Below are positions 11,979 to 49,775 of a stretch of 64,000 nt of DNA, piece after piece. Within the stretch, counting starts at the first letter, position 1. Each line of letters begins with the position of its first letter. The stretch covers positions 64,001 to 128,000 of the forward strand of contig JBBSVO010000004.1 in assembly GCA_038046805.1 (NCBI GenBank), read 5' to 3'. The notes under the pieces are model-generated. The model worked only from the letters and a program-made list of their open reading frames with translations, ran no database searches and was not told where the DNA came from. Origin of the DNA: Candidatus Micrarchaeota archaeon (GTDB taxonomy: Archaea > Micrarchaeota > Micrarchaeia > Anstonellales > Bilamarchaeaceae). The position numbers and the translations under genes were made by a program.

Positions 11979-12355
11979 AAAAATCAGTGACTGCTATATG
12001 TCAGGACAAAACCTCAAACCCGCAACCGAAAACTTAACCTGCTCGCACCCTCGGCCCCCCGCATTTTGGATTGTTTCGCGTTTTGAGTTTCGTGTTTTGC
12101 GTCTTGTTTTCGATTCCGAGACGCTGAACTTCAAGACTCGAAACGCAACTTCGCCAAGCGGGTGCTCTGCTATTGCTTACCCAGTTGACTTGTGATTCTC
12201 CAGGGCTTTTACGCTGGAGCGCTTTTGCCCTTATAAAACAGAAGTCAAAAGGGCCCTGAGCTACGAGCCCTAAGCAAAATAAAATTTGGACTCGGAGGGA
12301 TTTGCGAATAATTGGTTTCTGGCCTGCAGCCACTAGCTAGTATCCAGTAGCTTAA

Positions 12356-13537: not shown

Positions 13538-13802
13538 GCTCCTGTAGCTCAGTGAAAGTCTCGGGTCTTGTCTTATGGTCTTGTGTCTCGGTCGCGAGTT
13601 TCGAAACACGACCAAGTGAACGTCGCAACGTTCACGGGTCCATGGAACAAATACTTCGTTCCATCGGAGACGCGGAACACAAGACACGAAACTTCTGTAT
13701 GTAGAGCGCGTGCTTGGTAAGAACCCTTTTTGCGCGGCAAAAAGCGTTTCATCGGAAAACCTAATAAGCACGAGGTCGCGAGTTCAATTCTCGTCGGGGG
13801 CT
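13538..13802 (+). tRNA. tRNA-Thr(GGT) with two introns: exons 13538-13554, 13701-13719, 13767-13802
   Basis: Spliced exons give acceptor GCTCCTG/CGGGGGC, D arm GCTC-AGTGGTA-GAGC, anticodon arm CGTGC-TTGGTAA-GCACG, T loop TTCAATT; canonical 37/38 BHB (TTGG/CTAA). Confidence 0.88.
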
Positions 13803-13950
13803 TTTTACTTCTTCTTATTAGCCCGCATATATACGCTGCCATGTTTGGCGACAAACATGGCTTCCGGGTTGTAATTTGCTGCTTTTAGGCCAACCTAGCG
13901 TCGAAATAGTACAACATCTTGCATGAATAAATAAATGGAGTGGATGCGAG

Positions 13951-15159
13951 ATGACAACTATGAAATACGATCCGCATAATTTCGGCGGTTTGGTGGAAGG
14001 AATGGTGGCGAAGCTCAAAGCAAACGAATACGGGGTTTCTGATGAAAACACGAAAATCATCCTGGACTTCTATTTGGATCTGAGAAGTCAAGGTTTTACG
14101 GATTCGAGGATATGCAAGCATCTGACGATGTTGCGTCTTATCGCCAGAAGGATCACGAAGCCTTTTGATAAACTGACAAAGGAAGATATCAAGCAGTTCG
14201 TGATCGATATCGAATCAGCTAATTATTCAGATTGGACAAAGCACGACTACAAGGTCTCCATCAGATCTCTTTTCAGATGGCTCAAGGGAAATAACGAAAC
14301 CTATCCGGATGAAGTGGACTGGATAAGGGTACACGTCAAGGAAAGGCACAAACTGCCAGAAGAACTGCTTACGGAAGACGAAATGAAGCGAATGGTTGCT
14401 GCATCATCTGAACCAAGGGACAGGGCGCTTGTACAATGTCTTTACGAAACTGGATGTCGAATAAGCGAGCTCCTTACTGTGCAGCTCAAGAACTTGAGTT
14501 TTGACGATTATGGAGCAGTAATACGGGTAACTGGAAAGAGCGGAACAAGGCGAGTGAGGGTAATAGCATGCGTTCAAGCAATTGCAACCTGGTTAGAGCT
14601 TCATCCATGCAAGGATAATCCGGATGCCTATCTTTTTGTTAGGAAATACCAACGAAAAGAAAATCCTGTTCCGTTCAGGTACGAATATGCAGCAAAAATC
14701 ATAAGCACTCTGGCGGATGCTGCGGGAATTAAGAAAAGAGTACACCCTCATTTGTTTCGTCATTCCAGGGCAACAGCGTTGGCCAATAAATTGACCGAAG
14801 CTCAGATGAAGGAGTATTTCGGATGGACGCAGGGAAGCGATATGGCAAGCATTTACGTGCACCTTAGCGGTCGTGATGTTGACGATGCTATTCTTGGGCT
14901 TTACGGTTACAGGAGCGGAAATAAGGAGATTGCAAAGCTTCTAACCTGCCCACGGTGCAACCTCAACAATTCCCCTGGTTCAAAATTCTGCTCAAAATGC
15001 GGGTATACTTTTGATCTTGATCTAGCTATGCAGTTAGAGAAAGAGGATCAGGAATCGATAAATCTTGCTAAACAAATGGTCAAGGACCCAGAAATGCGTG
15101 AGCTCATGTTCAAGAAGATGCTTGAAAACAAGATAGGTTCGTCCAGGGTGCGAATATGA
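13951..15159 (+). CDS. Tyrosine recombinase/integrase with C-terminal double zinc ribbon
   Basis: ETGCRISE, HPHLFRHS, FGW...MASIYVHL; CPRC...CSKC. Confidence 0.95.
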   Translation: MTTMKYDPHNFGGLVEGMVAKLKANEYGVSDENTKIILDFYLDLRSQGFTDSRICKHLTMLRLIARRITKPFDKLTKEDIKQFVIDIESANYSDWTKHDYKVSIRSLFRWLKGNNETYPDEVDWIRVHVKERHKLPEELLTEDEMKRMVAASSEPRDRALVQCLYETGCRISELLTVQLKNLSFDDYGAVIRVTGKSGTRRVRVIACVQAIATWLELHPCKDNPDAYLFVRKYQRKENPVPFRYEYAAKIISTLADAAGIKKRVHPHLFRHSRATALANKLTEAQMKEYFGWTQGSDMASIYVHLSGRDVDDAILGLYGYRSGNKEIAKLLTCPRCNLNNSPGSKFCSKCGYTFDLDLAMQLEKEDQESINLAKQMVKDPEMRELMFKKMLENKIGSSRVRI

Positions 15160-15227: not shown

Positions 15228-16007
15228 ATGCGTACCAAAAAAATAATGCTCGGAAGCATGGAATTTTCTTTGTTGTCCAGCCTGGAGCATGACAAATTGT
15301 CTGTGTTTAGCTTTTCTGATGCCTACAAAAGGGCATCCACTACGAGGCAAGTAGTCAGGAAAGTGCTGAGCAGATTGGTAAAAAAAGGCAGGATAAAACG
15401 CATAAAAAAAGGGTATTATCTGCTTATTCCACTCAGATTCAAAGAATGGGGTGAGCATGAATTCTCGTTGGTTCCTTTCCTGGCTAAAGAGTACTATATA
15501 TCTTTCTGGTCTGCGCTGAGCTTCTGGTCATTAACTGAACAGATGCCGAGGCAGGTCTACGTTGCCGTGAAATTCCACGTGAAAGACAGGCCGTTCGAAG
15601 AGGTCAATTACAAATTTGTCAAACTCTCAAAAAGATATTTTTTTGGTTTTGTAGAAACTGAGATCCAAGGAAGGAAGATAAATATTGCTTCAAAGGAAAA
15701 GGCAATTCTTGATGGACTTTTACATCCGGAATATTGCGGTGGACTTGGTGAAATAGCAAAGGCTATACGTGATTATCACAAAGATATTGATTGGAAGAAG
15801 ATGAAAGATTATCTAAAAAAAATGGATAATTCAGCAGTGGAAAGAAGGCTTTATTACGTGCTTAAATTCCTTAAGATCAAAAATGTTTTAGGGAATAAAA
15901 TTTTTTTGGGTGTTAGACTCTTGGATCCGAACAAGTCGAAAAATGGGCGATATGATTATTCGTTTGGGTTGCAGATCAACACTAATTTGGAAGAGGAGAT
16001 GCTATGA
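15228..16007 (+). CDS. Type IV TA antitoxin, AbiEi family
   Basis: N-terminal wHTH (LVKKGRIKRIKKGYY), YISFWSALSFWSLTEQMP, EKAILD. Confidence 0.9.
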   Translation: MRTKKIMLGSMEFSLLSSLEHDKLSVFSFSDAYKRASTTRQVVRKVLSRLVKKGRIKRIKKGYYLLIPLRFKEWGEHEFSLVPFLAKEYYISFWSALSFWSLTEQMPRQVYVAVKFHVKDRPFEEVNYKFVKLSKRYFFGFVETEIQGRKINIASKEKAILDGLLHPEYCGGLGEIAKAIRDYHKDIDWKKMKDYLKKMDNSAVERRLYYVLKFLKIKNVLGNKIFLGVRLLDPNKSKNGRYDYSFGLQINTNLEEEML

Positions 16008-16798
16008 ATAAGATTGATGTGGAAATATTACAGGAGTATGCGATAGAACAGGGAAAACTGCCAGTAGGTCTTGTAGAAAAGGATTATGTTCTATCTGTTT
16101 TGTTGGCTTATCTCTCAAAATTACCAGAAGCAGAACAGATGATTTTCAAGGGCGGTACTGCTTTAAGAAAAATCTATTTTCCAGATTATCGTCTTTCAGC
16201 TGATCTTGATTTTAGTGTTAGTGTAGATAATCGCACTTCATTGAAGAAATCAATTGAGAAACTGCAGAATAAAGAACTTGAAGGAGTCAAATTTCTCAAA
16301 CTATCTGATAAGACGTTGAAAGGAACGAATAACCTGAGTCTTGCTCTCCAATACCAAAGCAGCGTTGCAATGGTTGGAGGCAGGGAGCACATTGATAATG
16401 TGAAAATGGACTTCAACTTTGACAATAAAGTTTATCTCAAGCCAGATAAGAAGAGAATTATTGCACCTGGCGTATATTCAATTGCAGATAGCGAGATGTA
16501 TGCGATGCAGCTTGAGGAAGTTGTTTGTGAGAAAATCCATGCGATCTACAAAAGACCAAAGCCTAGAGATCTTTACGATTTGTGGTATCTGCTTGGCAAA
16601 GGAGTCAAACCTGACATCCATTTAATCAACAGAAAACTCGAACCGTTGAAAGTAAAATTCAACATGGAAGAATTCGCAAAGCATGTGGAAAAATTACGGG
16701 TCGGGTGGGCAAAAGATATGCTTGGACTTCTTCCTAAAGTTCCGGTATTTGATCCGATTGCGGAATATGTATTAACAGACATGAAAAAAATTCGCTAA
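16004..16798 (+). CDS. Type IV TA toxin, AbiEii nucleotidyltransferase
   Basis: VEKDY, FKGGTAL, RLSADLDF, EKIHA, PRDLYDL. Confidence 0.92.
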   Translation: MNKIDVEILQEYAIEQGKLPVGLVEKDYVLSVLLAYLSKLPEAEQMIFKGGTALRKIYFPDYRLSADLDFSVSVDNRTSLKKSIEKLQNKELEGVKFLKLSDKTLKGTNNLSLALQYQSSVAMVGGREHIDNVKMDFNFDNKVYLKPDKKRIIAPGVYSIADSEMYAMQLEEVVCEKIHAIYKRPKPRDLYDLWYLLGKGVKPDIHLINRKLEPLKVKFNMEEFAKHVEKLRVGWAKDMLGLLPKVPVFDPIAEYVLTDMKKIR

Positions 16799-17011: not shown

Positions 17012-17905
17012 TCATGTATCTCTGACCGAAAATTTGGTCAGGGTTTCTTTTAGCGTGCTTCTGCTAATTACAGTTCCGTATTTGGAATATAGATATTTGA
17101 GTGATTTCTTTGTAACAAAAATATAGCTAATTTCGTATTCGTCTTTGTATCTAGCGAACTTAGTGCGAATAAAATTTGGATGCTTTTTCAAATTCTTTCC
17201 AGTTTCAACATCAAAACAATATTTTTTGTTTTCGAACTCAAAGACTACATCCGGACCGTTATTTACGTTCATTATCGGTCTGATTCCTAGCATTTTGAGT
17301 TCGTTTTCGATTAAATAACAAAAGAATGCGTGCTCTTTGCTTTCGTTATATCTCGATTTAATCCAGTAATAAGCAGCTCCGGATTTTCCAAATGGGCTGA
17401 TTTTGAGGCGTTTGTAGCCATTTGCCAGGAGAGACTCTTTCTTTTCAGCTGCTAAACCTTTTTCTAGATAGAGATTTTCGTTTTGGACTATCTTGACAGG
17501 TTCTTTAACTGTTTCTTTGGGTTTTTGAACTTTTTTTCGTGGTTTTGAAATTCTTGGCTTTGGATAGAACTCCGGATCAACCTCGTAAATTTCGGCTTCT
17601 ATTTCCTTAAGTTTTCTATCATCCGAGCACAGAAGTTTACAAAATCGATCCAATCTTTCCTCTTCTTGTTGCTGAATTTCTTTGCGTTTTTGTTGTATTC
17701 TTTCAAGCTCTTCAATATACCATTCTTTTTCTGAACCTGTTTTTCTTTCAAGTTCATATCTTGTCCAAAATTCGTCTTCAGTCATTTCAGAAACAATATT
17801 GTCAATATAATATTCTACCCAAATTGGAACCTTCCTGGTTCTTAGATATGTCTTCTGAGCTTCATGCGACATTATCTCCATCTCGGATACTGGTGTCAAT
17901 CCCAT
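17012..17905 (-). CDS. Hypothetical protein, possible PD-(D/E)xK-fold C-terminus
   Basis: GPDVVFE...YCFDVETG; lies inside the island. Confidence 0.55.
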   Translation of the reverse strand: MGLTPVSEMEIMSHEAQKTYLRTRKVPIWVEYYIDNIVSEMTEDEFWTRYELERKTGSEKEWYIEELERIQQKRKEIQQQEEERLDRFCKLLCSDDRKLKEIEAEIYEVDPEFYPKPRISKPRKKVQKPKETVKEPVKIVQNENLYLEKGLAAEKKESLLANGYKRLKISPFGKSGAAYYWIKSRYNESKEHAFFCYLIENELKMLGIRPIMNVNNGPDVVFEFENKKYCFDVETGKNLKKHPNFIRTKFARYKDEYEISYIFVTKKSLKYLYSKYGTVISRSTLKETLTKFSVRDT

Positions 17906-18266
17906 ATAACTTCAATTTCTGACGTATGGTGAATATTCTGAAATAGAGAGTTTCATATTCAACTGCTTTCTTCTTTATAGCATCATAGTTGTTCAATTTA
18001 TCGAGGCCATCGATGCAAACAAATCTACTAAGACTGGAGCCATTTTCTTTCATCTTGAATGGATTAAGCTTTAACATAACCCGTATTTGTTGTGCAATGC
18101 TTTCATAGTCCTCTGCAGTTTCGTTTAGTTCTCGAACGAGTTCTTTCCTTCTTTTGTACAGTTCTTCAAATTCAAGTAGGAGCTCGGCTTTCTTCTTACG
18201 ATCTAGATTTGGAGGAAAAAGCCAGTTTTGAAATTTTTGCAGTTTTTCTAGAACTACTTTTAACAT
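17862..18266 (-). CDS. Hypothetical coiled-coil protein
   Basis: 134-aa ORF overlapping the next gene by 44 bp (could be one frameshifted gene). Confidence 0.5.
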   Translation of the reverse strand: MLKVVLEKLQKFQNWLFPPNLDRKKKAELLLEFEELYKRRKELVRELNETAEDYESIAQQIRVMLKLNPFKMKENGSSLSRFVCIDGLDKLNNYDAIKKKAVEYETLYFRIFTIRQKLKLYGIDTSIRDGDNVA

Positions 18267-18319
18267 GACAATAATAATTAGCTCAAGTCGATTTAATCAT
18301 TCATGCAATATGTTGTATG

Positions 18320-19987
18320 CTACTCTACAATCTCAACAACTGCTTTCTGCTGTTTCTCGCTTGCTGTAACTCGTACTTTTTTATGAAAGATTAAAACTTT
18401 ACCACCATATACATGAGTAACAGTTTCTGGTCTGCCTAATCTTTCCCAATCAATGTCGACTCCAATCATGAAAATCTTTTTTGTTGTGTCCAACAGGCCT
18501 CCGAAATGGCCTTCGGGTGCATCGCGGTGGTTTGTCTTGCCAGAATACCCCGCAGTTTCAACAATTACTCGCGCATTACTTATATCCGCATATTCCAAAG
18601 GATTATCCTGAATAGATTTCGTAAGGTCTCCCACATAAACTACTACAAAATCCGCTAGATCTCTATTTAACTTTCTAAGCAGCCGTATGTCATCTTCTTT
18701 CTGAACAAATAGGATTGTATCGCTTTCGACCTCGCCGCTACCTTTCACATAACCGCTTCTGATTACCGTTTTCTCGGTTTCTGCTATTTCCTTTTCATCA
18801 TTCAGTTGTTTTTGATCTGCATCTGCTATTTGTAAAATCGCTACGTGAATTTGCCCCTCATTTTCCACTATGGCAAATTCAACATACTGTGGTTTTCCAG
18901 TCAATTGTTCCAACTTTTTCAATTTGACAAACAACCAATCAAGTTTGTTAAATGCAACTGTACCAAGTGCAATAGTAACATCATCAAAGTCTTTTTTAGT
19001 GACATATAAAAATTTCCCATCGGATAAATAATCAGTGAGTTTTCTGTAATGCAAACCGGCGCTTAAGCGCTCTTCTTCATCGTCTTGGATTTGAGATGGT
19101 GTGCGTTTGTCGCTTTCTTTTACTTTTATGCCATTTCCTTTCACCGCAGTGGTTGGTAAACCGGCTGCAAAAACGACATGACCTCCAGTATTATGAGAAG
19201 TATATCCAAAGCCGCCATATTTGGGTCCGAAACGAATTATGCCTTCACTATCGGTGTGTTTTTTGAATCTCTGCCCGAAAACAGGTTCGATGATAACTGC
19301 AACTCCACCTAGCAATCCAAGATCTTTTCTAAATACAATTGCCGATTCAGAAAACTCACTTATCATAACTGCTTTGATGGCCTTTACTAGGCCATCTAGA
19401 GTTTTAACTTCATTATTAAGGTTGATACAAAATTCGCTATCATAAATTCCTGTTCCCCTGCAATCACCATGTGCTGATGATCTTACCGCTAACGGAATTC
19501 CCCTAAAGTCCTTGTGAATCTGTTTCACAAGCCTCCGTAATACTTTCATTTCAGCTTCTTCGAACTGCCCCCCCCCGACTATCTTTTGGAGTTCTTCAGA
19601 AGAAGCTCCCCTTGTCAAAGCAGCGTTTAACCCGCATCGTTCTCTGAATGCATCAAAGAAACCCATTGCAAGAACAGTTCGTGGATTAACATCAAAACCA
19701 GCGCGTTCAATCGCCCATGTTTTTCGCATGAGCTCTTCAGCCTTGGCGCCAATAGAACCAGAACCAATGATCGTCCAGAACTTTTCAGTTAAAACAGAAA
19801 GCTGAGTTTCCCTAGCCTTAAGCAGATTAGCAACACATTGCCTGCCATTTGCTAAGGCAGTATCTGAAACGAGTGTCTGTGCCACGTAATAATAGTGCAA
19901 CCATTGGTTTTTAAAGTTACTTTTTGCGTAGAAATATGGTGACCTAAATTTTGAAATTTGCAAAACTATAAATACACCCTTATGCAA
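18320..19987 (-). CDS. PEP-synthase/PPDK N-terminal (ATP-grasp) domain protein; true start probably GTG near 19885
   Basis: PLAVRSSAHGD..GTGIYDS, VAVIIEPVFG, PQYVEFAI...ILQI. Confidence 0.7.
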   Translation of the reverse strand: MHKGVFIVLQISKFRSPYFYAKSNFKNQWLHYYYVAQTLVSDTALANGRQCVANLLKARETQLSVLTEKFWTIIGSGSIGAKAEELMRKTWAIERAGFDVNPRTVLAMGFFDAFRERCGLNAALTRGASSEELQKIVGGGQFEEAEMKVLRRLVKQIHKDFRGIPLAVRSSAHGDCRGTGIYDSEFCINLNNEVKTLDGLVKAIKAVMISEFSESAIVFRKDLGLLGGVAVIIEPVFGQRFKKHTDSEGIIRFGPKYGGFGYTSHNTGGHVVFAAGLPTTAVKGNGIKVKESDKRTPSQIQDDEEERLSAGLHYRKLTDYLSDGKFLYVTKKDFDDVTIALGTVAFNKLDWLFVKLKKLEQLTGKPQYVEFAIVENEGQIHVAILQIADADQKQLNDEKEIAETEKTVIRSGYVKGSGEVESDTILFVQKEDDIRLLRKLNRDLADFVVVYVGDLTKSIQDNPLEYADISNARVIVETAGYSGKTNHRDAPEGHFGGLLDTTKKIFMIGVDIDWERLGRPETVTHVYGGKVLIFHKKVRVTASEKQQKAVVEIVE

Positions 19988-20194
19988 TATCTTGTACGAA
20001 CATGCATGATGTTGTATAATTCGTGCAGGTTGCTAACGGCAGCATTCCACAACGTCGGGGGCTTCGTGATGTTTTGCGTTTAGAGTTCCGAGTTTTGTTT
20101 GTTTCGTATTTTGCGTTTCGCGTGGTGCATTCCATTCAAGACGCAATACTGAGAACGCGAAACCACCTTATAAAATCTATGTAACATTAGATAT

Positions 20195-25355: not shown

Positions 25356-25582
25356 CGTAAATCACCTGAGATTTTACCTTCCGCAATAAGTAAAATGTAC
25401 CATTAACCATTCAAGTACTTCGAATTTTGGGAGGTCGAACGCGGGTATAAAACAGAAAAAGTATTTAAAGATGGCTACTGGCAGCTAGCCATGGACAGTG
25501 GGATTACTGTTTCGCGTTTAGTGTTTCGCGTCCTGAACTCGGAACTGGAAACTGAAAACACATTTGGCCCAAGGCTCGTGGT

Positions 25583-46674: not shown

Positions 46675-47433
46675 TTATTTCGGTGTGAATTTCAGATGGA
46701 TAAACTTCAATACCTCATCAAATTCAGGTACGTCCGCAATCAAATGGGGAAGTTCTTTCCATAGTTTTCGGTATTTTTCTAGGCAATCTAGAAATTCGTC
46801 CTTGGAAAACGATTTATTATAATAACGCATCTTGTCATTGACCCAATCGTAGTTTATAGATATATCTTGCAAAAGAAGGTGATGCAGATCATAAAGATCC
46901 CGTGGACGATCTCTCATGAGTATTGCACGTATTTTCTCGGCAACAATCTCATCTCGTGACATTATGATCACTTCATAGTCTGGCAAATCGGGATATACGG
47001 ATTTGATAGCAACAACCTCTTTTGTTTTTGGAGTTTCCCTTCGGCTTACATCAACGTAAATATGGCATATCCCGAGTTCGGATTGCTCGGCGAGAGGCCC
47101 TTTTATAGAAAACCGATATCCAGATCCGATCTGCTCTTTTACCTTTATTTTCTTCAGAGTATTTACATAACCAAACTTCGAGAATAGTATCTTGCTTACT
47201 TCTCCAAGCAGTGCATCACAGTCTACATCGCTTATCTGAGTAAAGTCCAGGTCCTCACTGAATCTTTTGAGGCCATACGCCTTTTTTATCGCAGTTCCAC
47301 CTTTAAATAAAAGGGCAGAAGTACGAGAGTAGATAAGACTCAATAAAAGATGCTGGAAATATTCTTTTTCTATCTGCCAGGACTTCATTTTGAATGTCTT
47401 AGCATAAACCTTGAGATCTTCTGCACTTATCAT
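46675..47433 (-). CDS. Type IV TA toxin, AbiEii family
   Basis: IEKEY, FKGGTAI, RFSEDLDF, EKIRA, PRDLYDL. Confidence 0.92.
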   Translation of the reverse strand: MISAEDLKVYAKTFKMKSWQIEKEYFQHLLLSLIYSRTSALLFKGGTAIKKAYGLKRFSEDLDFTQISDVDCDALLGEVSKILFSKFGYVNTLKKIKVKEQIGSGYRFSIKGPLAEQSELGICHIYVDVSRRETPKTKEVVAIKSVYPDLPDYEVIIMSRDEIVAEKIRAILMRDRPRDLYDLHHLLLQDISINYDWVNDKMRYYNKSFSKDEFLDCLEKYRKLWKELPHLIADVPEFDEVLKFIHLKFTPK

Positions 47434-48143
47434 TGTATCGCCTCATTAACGATCAAATTCCATTCTGAAACATATTCTCCTTTTCTCGGGAGAGCAACAT
47501 TTAGCAAAACATGATTTTTTCCAACCCTCTTTTTTAAGGATCGCGGTATTGGGATATTGTTCAAAGAAAGCAGATACCCCAGGCGTTGCACAACGGCTGA
47601 CGAATCCATTCTCAATGCATAAATCACCAGCTTGTCGATATCGCATTCTGGGATTGCGTTGAGTATATCGCTAAATGAAACGATGTTTCGTTTATAATAA
47701 AGGCAGTCAATTACTGCTTTTTCTTTCTCGGCAACAAAGGCATAGCCGCCACGCACCACGCGCTTTTGATAGCCGAAGATGGATTTTGGCGCGAATTTAA
47801 CAAATTCGACTTCTATTTCGTTGGATAGAACCCTTTTCTTTGAAGAAGGGGAAACTACCTGGATAGACCTGGGGATTTGAGTCGTAAGCCCGTGAAGATA
47901 AAATGCAAAAAGAAAGGAGATATACGATGGAGTGACTAAACTAGTGGATAATATGAGTGGATCGGCGTCCCGCAGAAGGTACTTCCCTCGTTCAACCCGA
48001 AGGATTAAACCTTTTCTTTCAAGACGATGGAGGTAAATTCGTATGTAAGAACGGGGTTTGTCTATAATGCGCTCTGCATCAGTTACACTAAACATTGGGC
48101 GTCCGAGAGATCTTAATTTTTCGATGAACGCAAAGGCCTGCAT
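47430..48143 (-). CDS. Type IV TA antitoxin, AbiEi family
   Basis: RLERKGLILRVERGKY, PSYISF...GLTTQIP, EKEKAVID. Confidence 0.9.
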   Translation of the reverse strand: MQAFAFIEKLRSLGRPMFSVTDAERIIDKPRSYIRIYLHRLERKGLILRVERGKYLLRDADPLILSTSLVTPSYISFLFAFYLHGLTTQIPRSIQVVSPSSKKRVLSNEIEVEFVKFAPKSIFGYQKRVVRGGYAFVAEKEKAVIDCLYYKRNIVSFSDILNAIPECDIDKLVIYALRMDSSAVVQRLGYLLSLNNIPIPRSLKKRVGKNHVLLNVALPRKGEYVSEWNLIVNEAIQ

Positions 48144-48188
48144 ATAGATATATGAAATGAAAGATTTAAATAATTTGTTGTTACATAA

Positions 48189-48449
48189 TTATCAAAAATG
48201 ATAAGTATAATCAAACAAAACAGGAAATATCGAATTTTATGAATCAAAGTGACCGAAGAGTCCCCACTGCAAGCAGTGGGGTATGTGCTCATTCGGTCAC
48301 TACTTCACAAATTGGGGTCGCTGCAAGCAGCGGGGTATCCGACCCACAATTTGTGAATCAACAGATTTGTTGATGGCATGGAAATCCGCTTGTGGCGAGG
48401 CCCAGGGATAAACGAAATGTTAATAAACCTTAGTTATCAAAAAGGATAA
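48189..48449. promoter_or_regulatory. Divergent promoter region with two copies of TTATCAAAAA(T/G)GATAA and palindromic hairpins
   Basis: Copies at 48189-48204 and 48434-48449; hairpins such as CCCCACTGCAAGCAGTGGGG lie between them. Confidence 0.6.
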
Positions 48450-48451
48450 CT

Positions 48452-49045
48452 ATGGTTAATCGTATAAATCTGCTAAAACAGCTGGGGCAGTATCCTGTAT
48501 TTACTGTGAAGAATGTAAAGGATATCACGGATAAAAAGAGCGATTATGCAAAACTGGTTGTTCACAGGCTGAAAAAAGCAGGATTAATTTTTGCAGTTGA
48601 AAGAAATAGATACACCATCCATAGCGATCCGTGGATTATTGCGTCTCATATAGTCTGGCCGTCTTACATATCCTCCTGGGCGGCTATCAGGTATTACAAC
48701 CTCACGGAACAACTGCCTACGTATATCCAGGTAGTAACCACCAGGCCAAAAAAAAGGCGCAAAACCAGGTTTTCAAACACGACTATAGAATTCATAAGAA
48801 TAAAAAGGAAGAATTTCTTTGGTTTTGGAAAGGTTCCGCATGGGGATACGGACATATTCATGGCAGAAAAAGAAAAGGCCCTTGCGGATGCATTGTATCT
48901 CCGCCATATATCTTATGAAACATTCAGTGAGATTCTGAGGGAGCACCGAAAGGAGATTGATATAAGAAGATTGATAGATTACCTGAAAAGGATGGGAGTG
49001 AAGCGCATTATTAAAAGAGGCGAAGCAGATGATAACAAAAAATGA
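48452..49045 (+). CDS. Type IV TA antitoxin, AbiEi family
   Basis: RLKKAGLIFAVERNRY, PSYISSWAAIRYYNLTEQLP, EKEKALAD. Confidence 0.9.
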   Translation: MVNRINLLKQLGQYPVFTVKNVKDITDKKSDYAKLVVHRLKKAGLIFAVERNRYTIHSDPWIIASHIVWPSYISSWAAIRYYNLTEQLPTYIQVVTTRPKKRRKTRFSNTTIEFIRIKRKNFFGFGKVPHGDTDIFMAEKEKALADALYLRHISYETFSEILREHRKEIDIRRLIDYLKRMGVKRIIKRGEADDNKK

Positions 49046-49775
49046 TCTGGAACAGGCCGCGAAACTGAAAAGCCTTTCCATGGAAAACTGCGAAAAGGAC
49101 TATTTTCAGGACCTTGTGCTTTTTAATCTTTACCGGCAAGTCGGAAAGGAGTTTGTTTTCAAGGGAGGCACATGCCTGTATAAAATATACAAGCTTAACC
49201 GGTTCAGTGAAGACCTTGATTTTACGGTAACCAAAAGGATAGACATTGACAAAATAATGCGCCTGGTGGTATACTCGCTCCAATCATTGAACATAGGGAC
49301 AACACTAAAGGAAATGGACAAATTCCAGAATCAGATAAACATCAGGATGGCGTTCCGGGGACCGCTCTATAAAGGCACAAAGGAAAGCATGCTTGTCCTT
49401 ACCCTTAACCTTAGTTCGAGGGAACGACCGGTAAACAATCCCAAAAAGGAGATGATACTGCCCATATACCGAGATATTCCATCCTTTGAGATATTTGCCA
49501 TGGATGAAAACGAAATGGTAGTGGAGAAGATAAAGACCATATTTGAAAGAAACAAGCCAAGAGACGCCTATGACTTATGGTTTTTATTAAAAATAAAGGG
49601 ATTCATGGTGGATTACGGGCTCGTGTCAAAAAAGATTGGAAAATTTGACAGAAACGAATTCTCCAAAAAACTTGAAGAAAAGGCTCAAAATTGGGAACGG
49701 GAGCTTAAACGATTTATAATTGGAACCTTGCCTCCATTCAGCCAGGTAAAAAAAGAGATTGAGGAAAGGATTTGA
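49029..49775 (+). CDS. Type IV TA toxin, AbiEii family
   Basis: EKDYFQ, FKGGTCL, RFSEDLDF, KPRDAYDL. Confidence 0.92.
   Translation: MITKNDLEQAAKLKSLSMENCEKDYFQDLVLFNLYRQVGKEFVFKGGTCLYKIYKLNRFSEDLDFTVTKRIDIDKIMRLVVYSLQSLNIGTTLKEMDKFQNQINIRMAFRGPLYKGTKESMLVLTLNLSSRERPVNNPKKEMILPIYRDIPSFEIFAMDENEMVVEKIKTIFERNKPRDAYDLWFLLKIKGFMVDYGLVSKKIGKFDRNEFSKKLEEKAQNWERELKRFIIGTLPPFSQVKKEIEERI

Follow-up and report, generated by a model that had tools for sequence, protein, structure and literature searches.

We found that the four 16-bp palindromic boxes in the analysed stretch (hereafter the window, 64,000 nucleotides of one contig) belong to a 6.26-kb island integrated in an intron-split tRNA-Thr gene of a member of the Micrarchaeota. 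On balance we favour the reading that this is an integrative element whose crossover would fall within a short core sequence where the tRNA gene has its 3' end, with the box acting as an accessory and operator site of the island-encoded integrase. Since in related genomes a doubled box signal closes integrase-free packets behind tRNA genes, gene exchange probably takes place at the tRNA end rather than from repeat to repeat.

Island borders and target tRNA

The features of the island, in order, are the following:

13538..13803, + strand, tRNA-Thr(GGT) gene with two introns, the island target (arms placed by hand)
13792..13803, + strand, left att core, identical with the tRNA 3' end, CGTCGGGGGCTT (12-mer repeat)
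13838..13861, + strand, perfect 10-bp hairpin in the left arm (fold z −2.2; kept in locus L048)
13909..13924, + strand, single box just upstream of the integrase BRE/TATA, 51 bp before the ATG at 13960
13960..15159, + strand, tyrosine recombinase with core-binding and catalytic domains and, at the C-terminus, a zinc ribbon and helices (13951 as alternative start)
15228..16798, + strand, AbiEi/AbiEii type IV toxin-antitoxin pair (Pfam and PADLOC)
17012..18266, − strand, orf134 and orf297, recurrent companions of the integrase family (homologues beside the integrase in many loci)
18303..18318, − strand, single internal box followed by a TATA-like stretch, 52 bp before the orf134 ATG
18320..19885, − strand, cargo gene of 521 aa with a PPDK_N (ATP-grasp-like) domain (Pfam 4.5e-11)
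19908..19924, − strand, the cargo's own BRE/TATA-like promoter, independent of the boxes (same motif and distance in the C11 paralogue, compared by eye)
19982..20017, + strand, box pair, its two boxes 4 bp apart, forming the conserved arm of the far end; the att core follows after 35 bp
20053..20064, + strand, right att core, a copy of the tRNA-Thr 3' end

The tRNA-Thr gene at 13538–13803 was undetected by ARAGORN and Rfam; its acceptor, D, anticodon and T arms were located manually, with a long intron in the D-loop and another in the anticodon loop. A relative has a one-intron version of this gene, adjoined by the same host gene. In the whole genome ARAGORN reports only 10 tRNAs, versus 17 GC-rich T-arms that we listed. 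The 12-bp tRNA 3'-end sequence stands as a direct repeat at both island borders (13792–13803 and 20053–20064) and nowhere else in the genome, and among 162 distinct homologous loci the far ends of 14 other islands repeat the tRNA end in identical register. The first-pass annotation had taken the 16-mers to mark the integrase end as well; copies do lie on the integrase side and at the far end, but the true ends are the 12-bp repeats at 13792 and 20053, which it had missed. These repeats, observed at both borders, point to crossover within the tRNA 3'-end core as the likely chemistry. Neither an excised circle nor an empty site was seen in the contig sets of four sequencing runs (depth about 1–13), and a different cargo is found at the same tRNA in locus L048.

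The acceptor strand of the target tRNAs ends in GC in 58 of 59 cases; among control T-arms the figures are 10 of 17 for this genome and 20 of 40 for other parts of the loci. This GC end resembles a half-site of the box. In their left half, the att cores show no match to it. When the box was laid over tRNA ends, the expected register was favoured in targets and non-targets alike, among kin that are not independent, so only the difference in the right half counts.

Several arrangements around the att sites deserve mention in their own right. At loci L036, L088, L059, L094, L074 and L129, which belong to other clades, short inverted repeats (TCTGAG-like, TCAAGAAGCA-like) flank the core; they are another candidate arm motif, different from the box. 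Intergenic repeats rich in TTTCGCGTTT are located at 12065–12100, 20063–20128 and 25501–25560 of the window, one of them starting at the right att. In the C6:164690-168600 island of the same genome, the integrase lies at the tRNA-distal end and is directed toward the tRNA, and the core is present twice at the far end. The layout looks the same in several homologous loci.

The integrase

The integrase matches Phage_integrase (7.8e-24), SAM_4 and a zinc ribbon in Pfam, and residues R167, K193, H264, R267, W289 and Y299 are invariant across 42 homologues. Its best match among solved folds is archaeal XerA (5hxy, E 4e-10, from a model with pLDDT 81), as is its best NCBIfam match (score 117 versus a cut-off of 220). 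The similarity to the integron integrase family TIGR02249 (IntI) amounts to 46 bits, with a cut-off of 265, and covers residues 59–202 only. No N-terminal arm-binding domain was recognised by Pfam, in the model or among the fold matches; the N-terminus is all-helical and Xer-like.

The closest relatives of this enzyme come from Micrarchaeota. Viral contigs gave no relative of the integrase and 14 pattern matches. A FastTree phylogeny was built from the 146 rows that passed a filter on length and flanks, which removed L062; in it the window integrase falls into a clade of nine rows (SH 99), in which ATGCA-type promoter boxes are concentrated: threshold labelling assigned six rows to this type, five of them inside the clade and one outside, and L082 and L126 have such boxes by eye. 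The window genome possesses three copies of the integrase, each in its own island, and the box variant of the other two differs from that of the window.

Other genes of the island

Downstream of the integrase lies the AbiEi/AbiEii pair; two further AbiEi/AbiEii-like pairs are present in the same window (C4:111430-113733, window about 46700–49700). The product of orf297 may resemble the C-terminal part of VirB4/TraG/HerA-like ATPases according to structural comparison (TM 0.4–0.55), a lead from structure, and no relaxase, oriT or mating-pore genes are annotated in the island.

The PPDK_N cargo gave no match in PADLOC and no sequence match in the PDB. Its stop codon occupies 18320–18322 and its start is most likely the GTG at 19885, not 19987. 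PPDK_N-like genes occur in all three zinc-ribbon-integrase islands of the window genome, the C11 and C6 copies being split (islands C11:2925-7779 and C6:164690-168510), and in one island of another genome, G096 (locus L239).

The 16-bp box

Sequence inspection bore out the four 16-mers (13909–13924, inverted; 18303–18318; 19982–19997; 20002–20017) as well as the single base reported between the cargo stop codon and the 18303 copy. The labels "direct" and "inverted" are weak, even though the positions behind them hold, because the box is itself an imperfect palindrome of 5-bp arms around a 6-bp spacer. The spacers differ among the copies; the whole copies at 18303 and 19982 are identical at 14 of 16 positions. 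A single copy precedes the integrase, another precedes orf134, and the box is doubled 35 bp inside the far att.

The pattern ATGCAANATNTTGTAY has three exact matches in the genome of 1,200,822 bases, every one of them inside the island, and seven when one mismatch is allowed, four of which are in the island. As this pattern was derived from the island copies themselves, the non-circular test was a matrix built from 25 box pairs of other genomes: it yields 17 genome matches of at least 13 bits, among which the island copies rank 2, 3, 4 and 5. The remaining top matches are dispersed; of the six that were looked at, most are located within ORFs. Boxes are more similar within their own island than between islands, if weakly (p 0.04), and a strong box is present at 4 of the 14 distinct far ends examined.

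A host DNA-damage regulon was considered and rejected: in the window genome the box pattern is absent before radA and not enriched before host genes, and the match at C4:150191 lies inside a gene. Separately, clusters of TTTCCTAGGAAA / TTCCGCGGAA palindromes were noted at loci L058, L080, L085, L095, L113, L116 and L048 (past the microprotein box), possibly forming an origin or another binding array.

Single boxes as promoter elements

A similar palindrome is found upstream of 72 of 152 homologous integrases, as compared with 3.5% in shuffled sequences, by a scoring that was hand-made after the data were viewed. Downstream of the integrases, palindromes are followed by an ATG 50–53 bp on in 29 of 64 cases, whereas host flanks give at most 2 of 46 and random sequence 69 of 1096. 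The genes at such ATG-spaced boxes include further integrases, DNA methylases, a YhcG-like gene, orf134 homologues and microproteins of 31–62 aa. The highest scores for the module of box, TATA and ATG in the window genome are those of orf134 and the three integrases; radA is without it. Across 121 genomes of the order, the box-plus-TATA pattern has 14 matches, distributed as 7 integrase, 2 methylase, 1 YhcG-like and 4 other or no gene. We take the 50–53 bp spacing to mean that the box lies just upstream of the BRE and TATA of a leaderless transcript. Archaeal regulators typically sit just upstream of the BRE. Loci L320, L323, L048 and L330 carry the box-plus-promoter arrangement of the 18303 copy, in which similarity stops at the outer edge of the box.

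At loci L064, L071, L077 and L165, a box and start codon like those of the methylase promoter precede another promoter together with an integrase or other gene, which suggests shuffling of promoter modules. The microproteins (31–62 aa, LP.W..ELK) stand behind a box and usually converge on the integrase 3' end (L101:11111-11230(-), L060:11111-11230(-), L048:7149-7253(-) and about 20 more). The one tested had no NCBIfam match, and the microprotein is a candidate directionality factor or inhibitor. As a universal binder of the box it was rejected, as it was not found in the window or its genome; prediction of an integrase-microprotein complex gave a score of 0.02, uninformative either way.

Box pairs and integrase-free units in relatives

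The 36-bp double box occurs in 17 of 99 genomes of the family, the reversed-pattern control giving 0, and a shorter form of the pair in 13 of 80 family genomes versus 1 of 320 others in the class. Pair matches in two genomes (G426 and G383) looked like chance. A tRNA-end-like core, which is absent from the pair search pattern, follows at +69 to +71 in 24 of 29 pairs (two of the 29 being near-copies), 21 of them at +71, that is with the 35-bp gap of the window; the inner side of the pairs, used as a control, gave four scattered core matches. The earlier suggestion that the 16-mers behave as arm-like accessory sites near att is supported.

Eighteen pairs close integrase-free units with both ends present, 0.6–7.7 kb in size, in 10 genomes, and no integrase match was obtained within the 20 stretches fetched. 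Stacks of three are seen in L315 and L325 and a stack of two in L316. The units keep att-like ends: where a unit could be delimited fully, its boundaries are always tRNA cores, and the left end of several is a core copy with a putative tRNA. The left box is missing from most of them, which fits decay or a one-armed site. Among the genes they carry are Fic, HicAB, ParE and AsnC-type regulator genes, together with genes for thymidylate synthase, an ArsP permease and a radical SAM protein. One HTH-Fic unit, about 1.4 kb long, is found at two different cores in two genera, with 71% identity from 34 bp inside the left core; one copy lies directly behind an integrase-bearing element (L323), its right-end signals decayed. 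This single recurring unit suggests that the units may be mobile.

In five unit-bearing genomes no relative of the window integrase was matched, and in three of those five (88–93% complete) no Phage_integrase domain was found. Among the 16 other pattern-positive genomes, 14 of them searched, four contain an intact integrase of at least 50% identity.

The stretch between inner box and pair

The first-pass annotation suggested testing whether different genes occupy the slot between the repeats, and they do. The layout of single box, cargo, pair and core recurs in three other loci: the slot of L323 holds three genes of unassigned function, that of L330 one such gene, and that of L320 Vsr, a cytosine methylase and an HSP90-like ATPase. 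With different genes in the slot at three loci, slot variation is real. At these loci the nearest element-side ATG opens a short ORF or is missing, and the box and TATA-like stretch are conserved.

The conclusion drawn from this slot, namely that the cargo was captured between the boxes, was not supported: in the PPDK_N homologues a box at the stop codon is found in 0 of 21 other loci, including a 70%-identical paralogue in the same genome (25 rows minus one duplicate and three contig ends; several are fragments). Nor was the idea of the 16-mers as crossover points of cassettes, as the units are bounded by copies of the tRNA end and the 18303 copy has the geometry of an orf134 promoter box. 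A box-box joint was not present in the contig sets of 4 runs out of 18, contigs being prone to drop rare forms; contigs of another study bridge both 18303 and the right end.

Integron-like behaviour was retained in part. Integrase-free units do stack at the tRNA ends of relatives, though not in the window itself, but there is neither an IntI-level match nor any attC feature. The attC consensus RYYYAAC...GTTRRRY has no match at 18200–18420 or 19900–20150, and folding gave z of 0.1 to 1.2; an attC-type structure was rejected.

Proposed mechanism and alternatives

We propose that the zinc-ribbon recombinase would cross over in the short tRNA 3'-end core, and that the 16-bp palindrome would be a protein-binding site with the integrase as its most likely binder. 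The doubled box 35 bp inside the far core would serve as the accessory arm of the attachment site, whereas the single box upstream of BRE/TATA would place the integrase gene and a companion operon under one control, the latter being orf134/297 here and methylase, YhcG-like or 31–62 aa microprotein genes elsewhere. The PPDK_N gene would be cargo with its own promoter, located in the variable region that separates the promoter of the companion operon from the end arm. Among relatives, arm and core would close small integrase-free units piled behind tRNA genes, which an integrase of this clade would have inserted, either in trans or while it belonged to larger elements that lost it afterwards. 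A more far-reaching version, which we hold only tentatively, is a tRNA-anchored cassette system run in Micrarchaeota by a single clade of zinc-ribbon tyrosine recombinases, in which the palindrome is both arm and operator of a small regulon, and the 36-bp pair, 35-bp linker and a matching core allow any gene to be inserted in trans at several GC-ending tRNAs, giving integron-like arrays with no IntI or attC.

The clade-matched box variant and the GC half-site, set against missing integrases and weak covariation, lead us to infer binding of the box by the integrase from sequence patterns. The near confinement of the pair to one host family also fits a host factor. A host protein, or the regulator of another element, might bind the box as transcription factor and architectural cofactor while the integrase reads the tRNA core only, a reading that we regard as unlikely. 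It would be in keeping with the units in genomes without a detected integrase, with the non-Micrarchaeota homologues, which are mostly without the box, and with the position upstream of the BRE that is typical of archaeal regulators. Such a palindrome is also needed by a separate repressor in SNJ2 (PMC10123103). However, the box variant differs between integrase clades within one genome, the window genome shows no host box regulon, radA included, 10 of the 14 box-plus-TATA matches precede integrase, methylase or YhcG-like island genes, and by inspection no other gene is common to all box-bearing islands.

Two further explanations concern the internal box and its neighbour. The 18303 copy could be the stump of an older far-end pair, behind which a tandem PPDK_N unit arrived, deletion of the inner att then fusing both. 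An integrase element and a unit do stand in tandem elsewhere (L323, where the unit is HTH-Fic), decayed inner att cores are seen in stacks (L315 8959, L316 10475), and the 1-bp gap to the stop codon resembles a deletion end; yet no locus was found whose orf134-type promoter box is still paired and cored, and the inner flanks of the pairs differ from the orf134-type promoter, which makes this history a rather improbable one. Slightly less credible still is that the boxes are themselves crossover sites, a circle with one box and the PPDK_N gene having been inserted at the inner box of the pair and leaving the 18303 and 19982 copies as flanking repeats. The 5-6-5 palindrome has the geometry of a recombinase core, and the near-identity of these two copies (14/16), the stop codon 1 bp from the box, the end of similarity of the internal box at its outer edge, the three other loci with single box, different cargo and pair, and a box 10 bp past the integrase stop in L048 would all agree with it. 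Against it stand the 0 of 21 stop boxes among PPDK_N homologues and the differing spacers, the tRNA cores that bound every fully delimited unit, the fixed distance of internal boxes to start codons and the lack of a joint in the four runs.

The preferred reading provides the integrase-free, tRNA-stacked gene units of these uncultured archaea with a candidate enzyme and with a cis module of 83 bp (pair, linker, core), and makes their mobility testable in vitro. Should the box indeed be read by the integrase, an Xer-like enzyme lacking an arm-binding domain would use accessory sites, regulate distant island genes and act on many overlap sequences. Otherwise, this would be a tRNA island of a fairly ordinary kind whose regulator box is conserved.

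Comparison with known systems

No description of the box or the units was found in the literature searched (open articles, main text), and the accessible parts of PMC13343696 and PMC8371274 contain nothing on the integrase family. What is added here is the link of integrase-free tRNA stacks to this box and this integrase clade.

The integrase itself differs from XerA in its extra zinc ribbon and in the presence of three island copies in one genome. Arm sites have been tied to an arm-binding domain (Smyshlyaev et al., PMC8138268), and the window integrase, unlike those of the lambda, P2 and Tn916 types, is without one. With regard to regulation, IntS of KplE1 is autoregulated via attL (PMC2951348), and as in our island the integrase gene lies behind the tRNA in like orientation, its promoter overlapped by putative integrase sites. 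In contrast to KplE1, the box here also precedes island genes kilobases away, there is no N-terminal arm-binding domain, and integrase binding is suggested by sequence. In the SNJ2 pleolipovirus, a palindrome stands beside the TATA box of the integrase promoter (PMC10123103), but it has a 4-bp spacer and a separate repressor (Orf4), while no shared repressor gene was seen in our islands.

As for the stacked units, tandem accretion of CIMEs at att sites in the ICESt1 family (PMC5704250) is comparable in that these are integrase-less, att-bounded and stacked behind the target gene, sometimes beside an integrase-bearing element. The present units differ in their archaeal host, their size of 0.6–7.7 kb with often one or two genes, and the lack of a left-arm box in most of them; moreover, one arm motif serves many tRNA targets and doubles as a promoter box. 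Integrons, including archaeal ones (PMC9668308), likewise form arrays of small units at one site, some without an adjacent integrase and with many toxin-antitoxin genes. Here, however, there is no IntI-level match and no attC hairpin or consensus, docking is at the tRNA 3' end, and the arm forms no hairpin. Tandem reuse of tRNA sites is also known for tycheposons and thaumarchaeal integrated elements (10.1101/2020.12.28.424599; PMC6563490), which share recombinase elements at tRNA 3' ends, short att repeats and tandem insertions that push older ones outward; those described carry their own integrase, in contrast to the units reported here, and the window island has no replication module.
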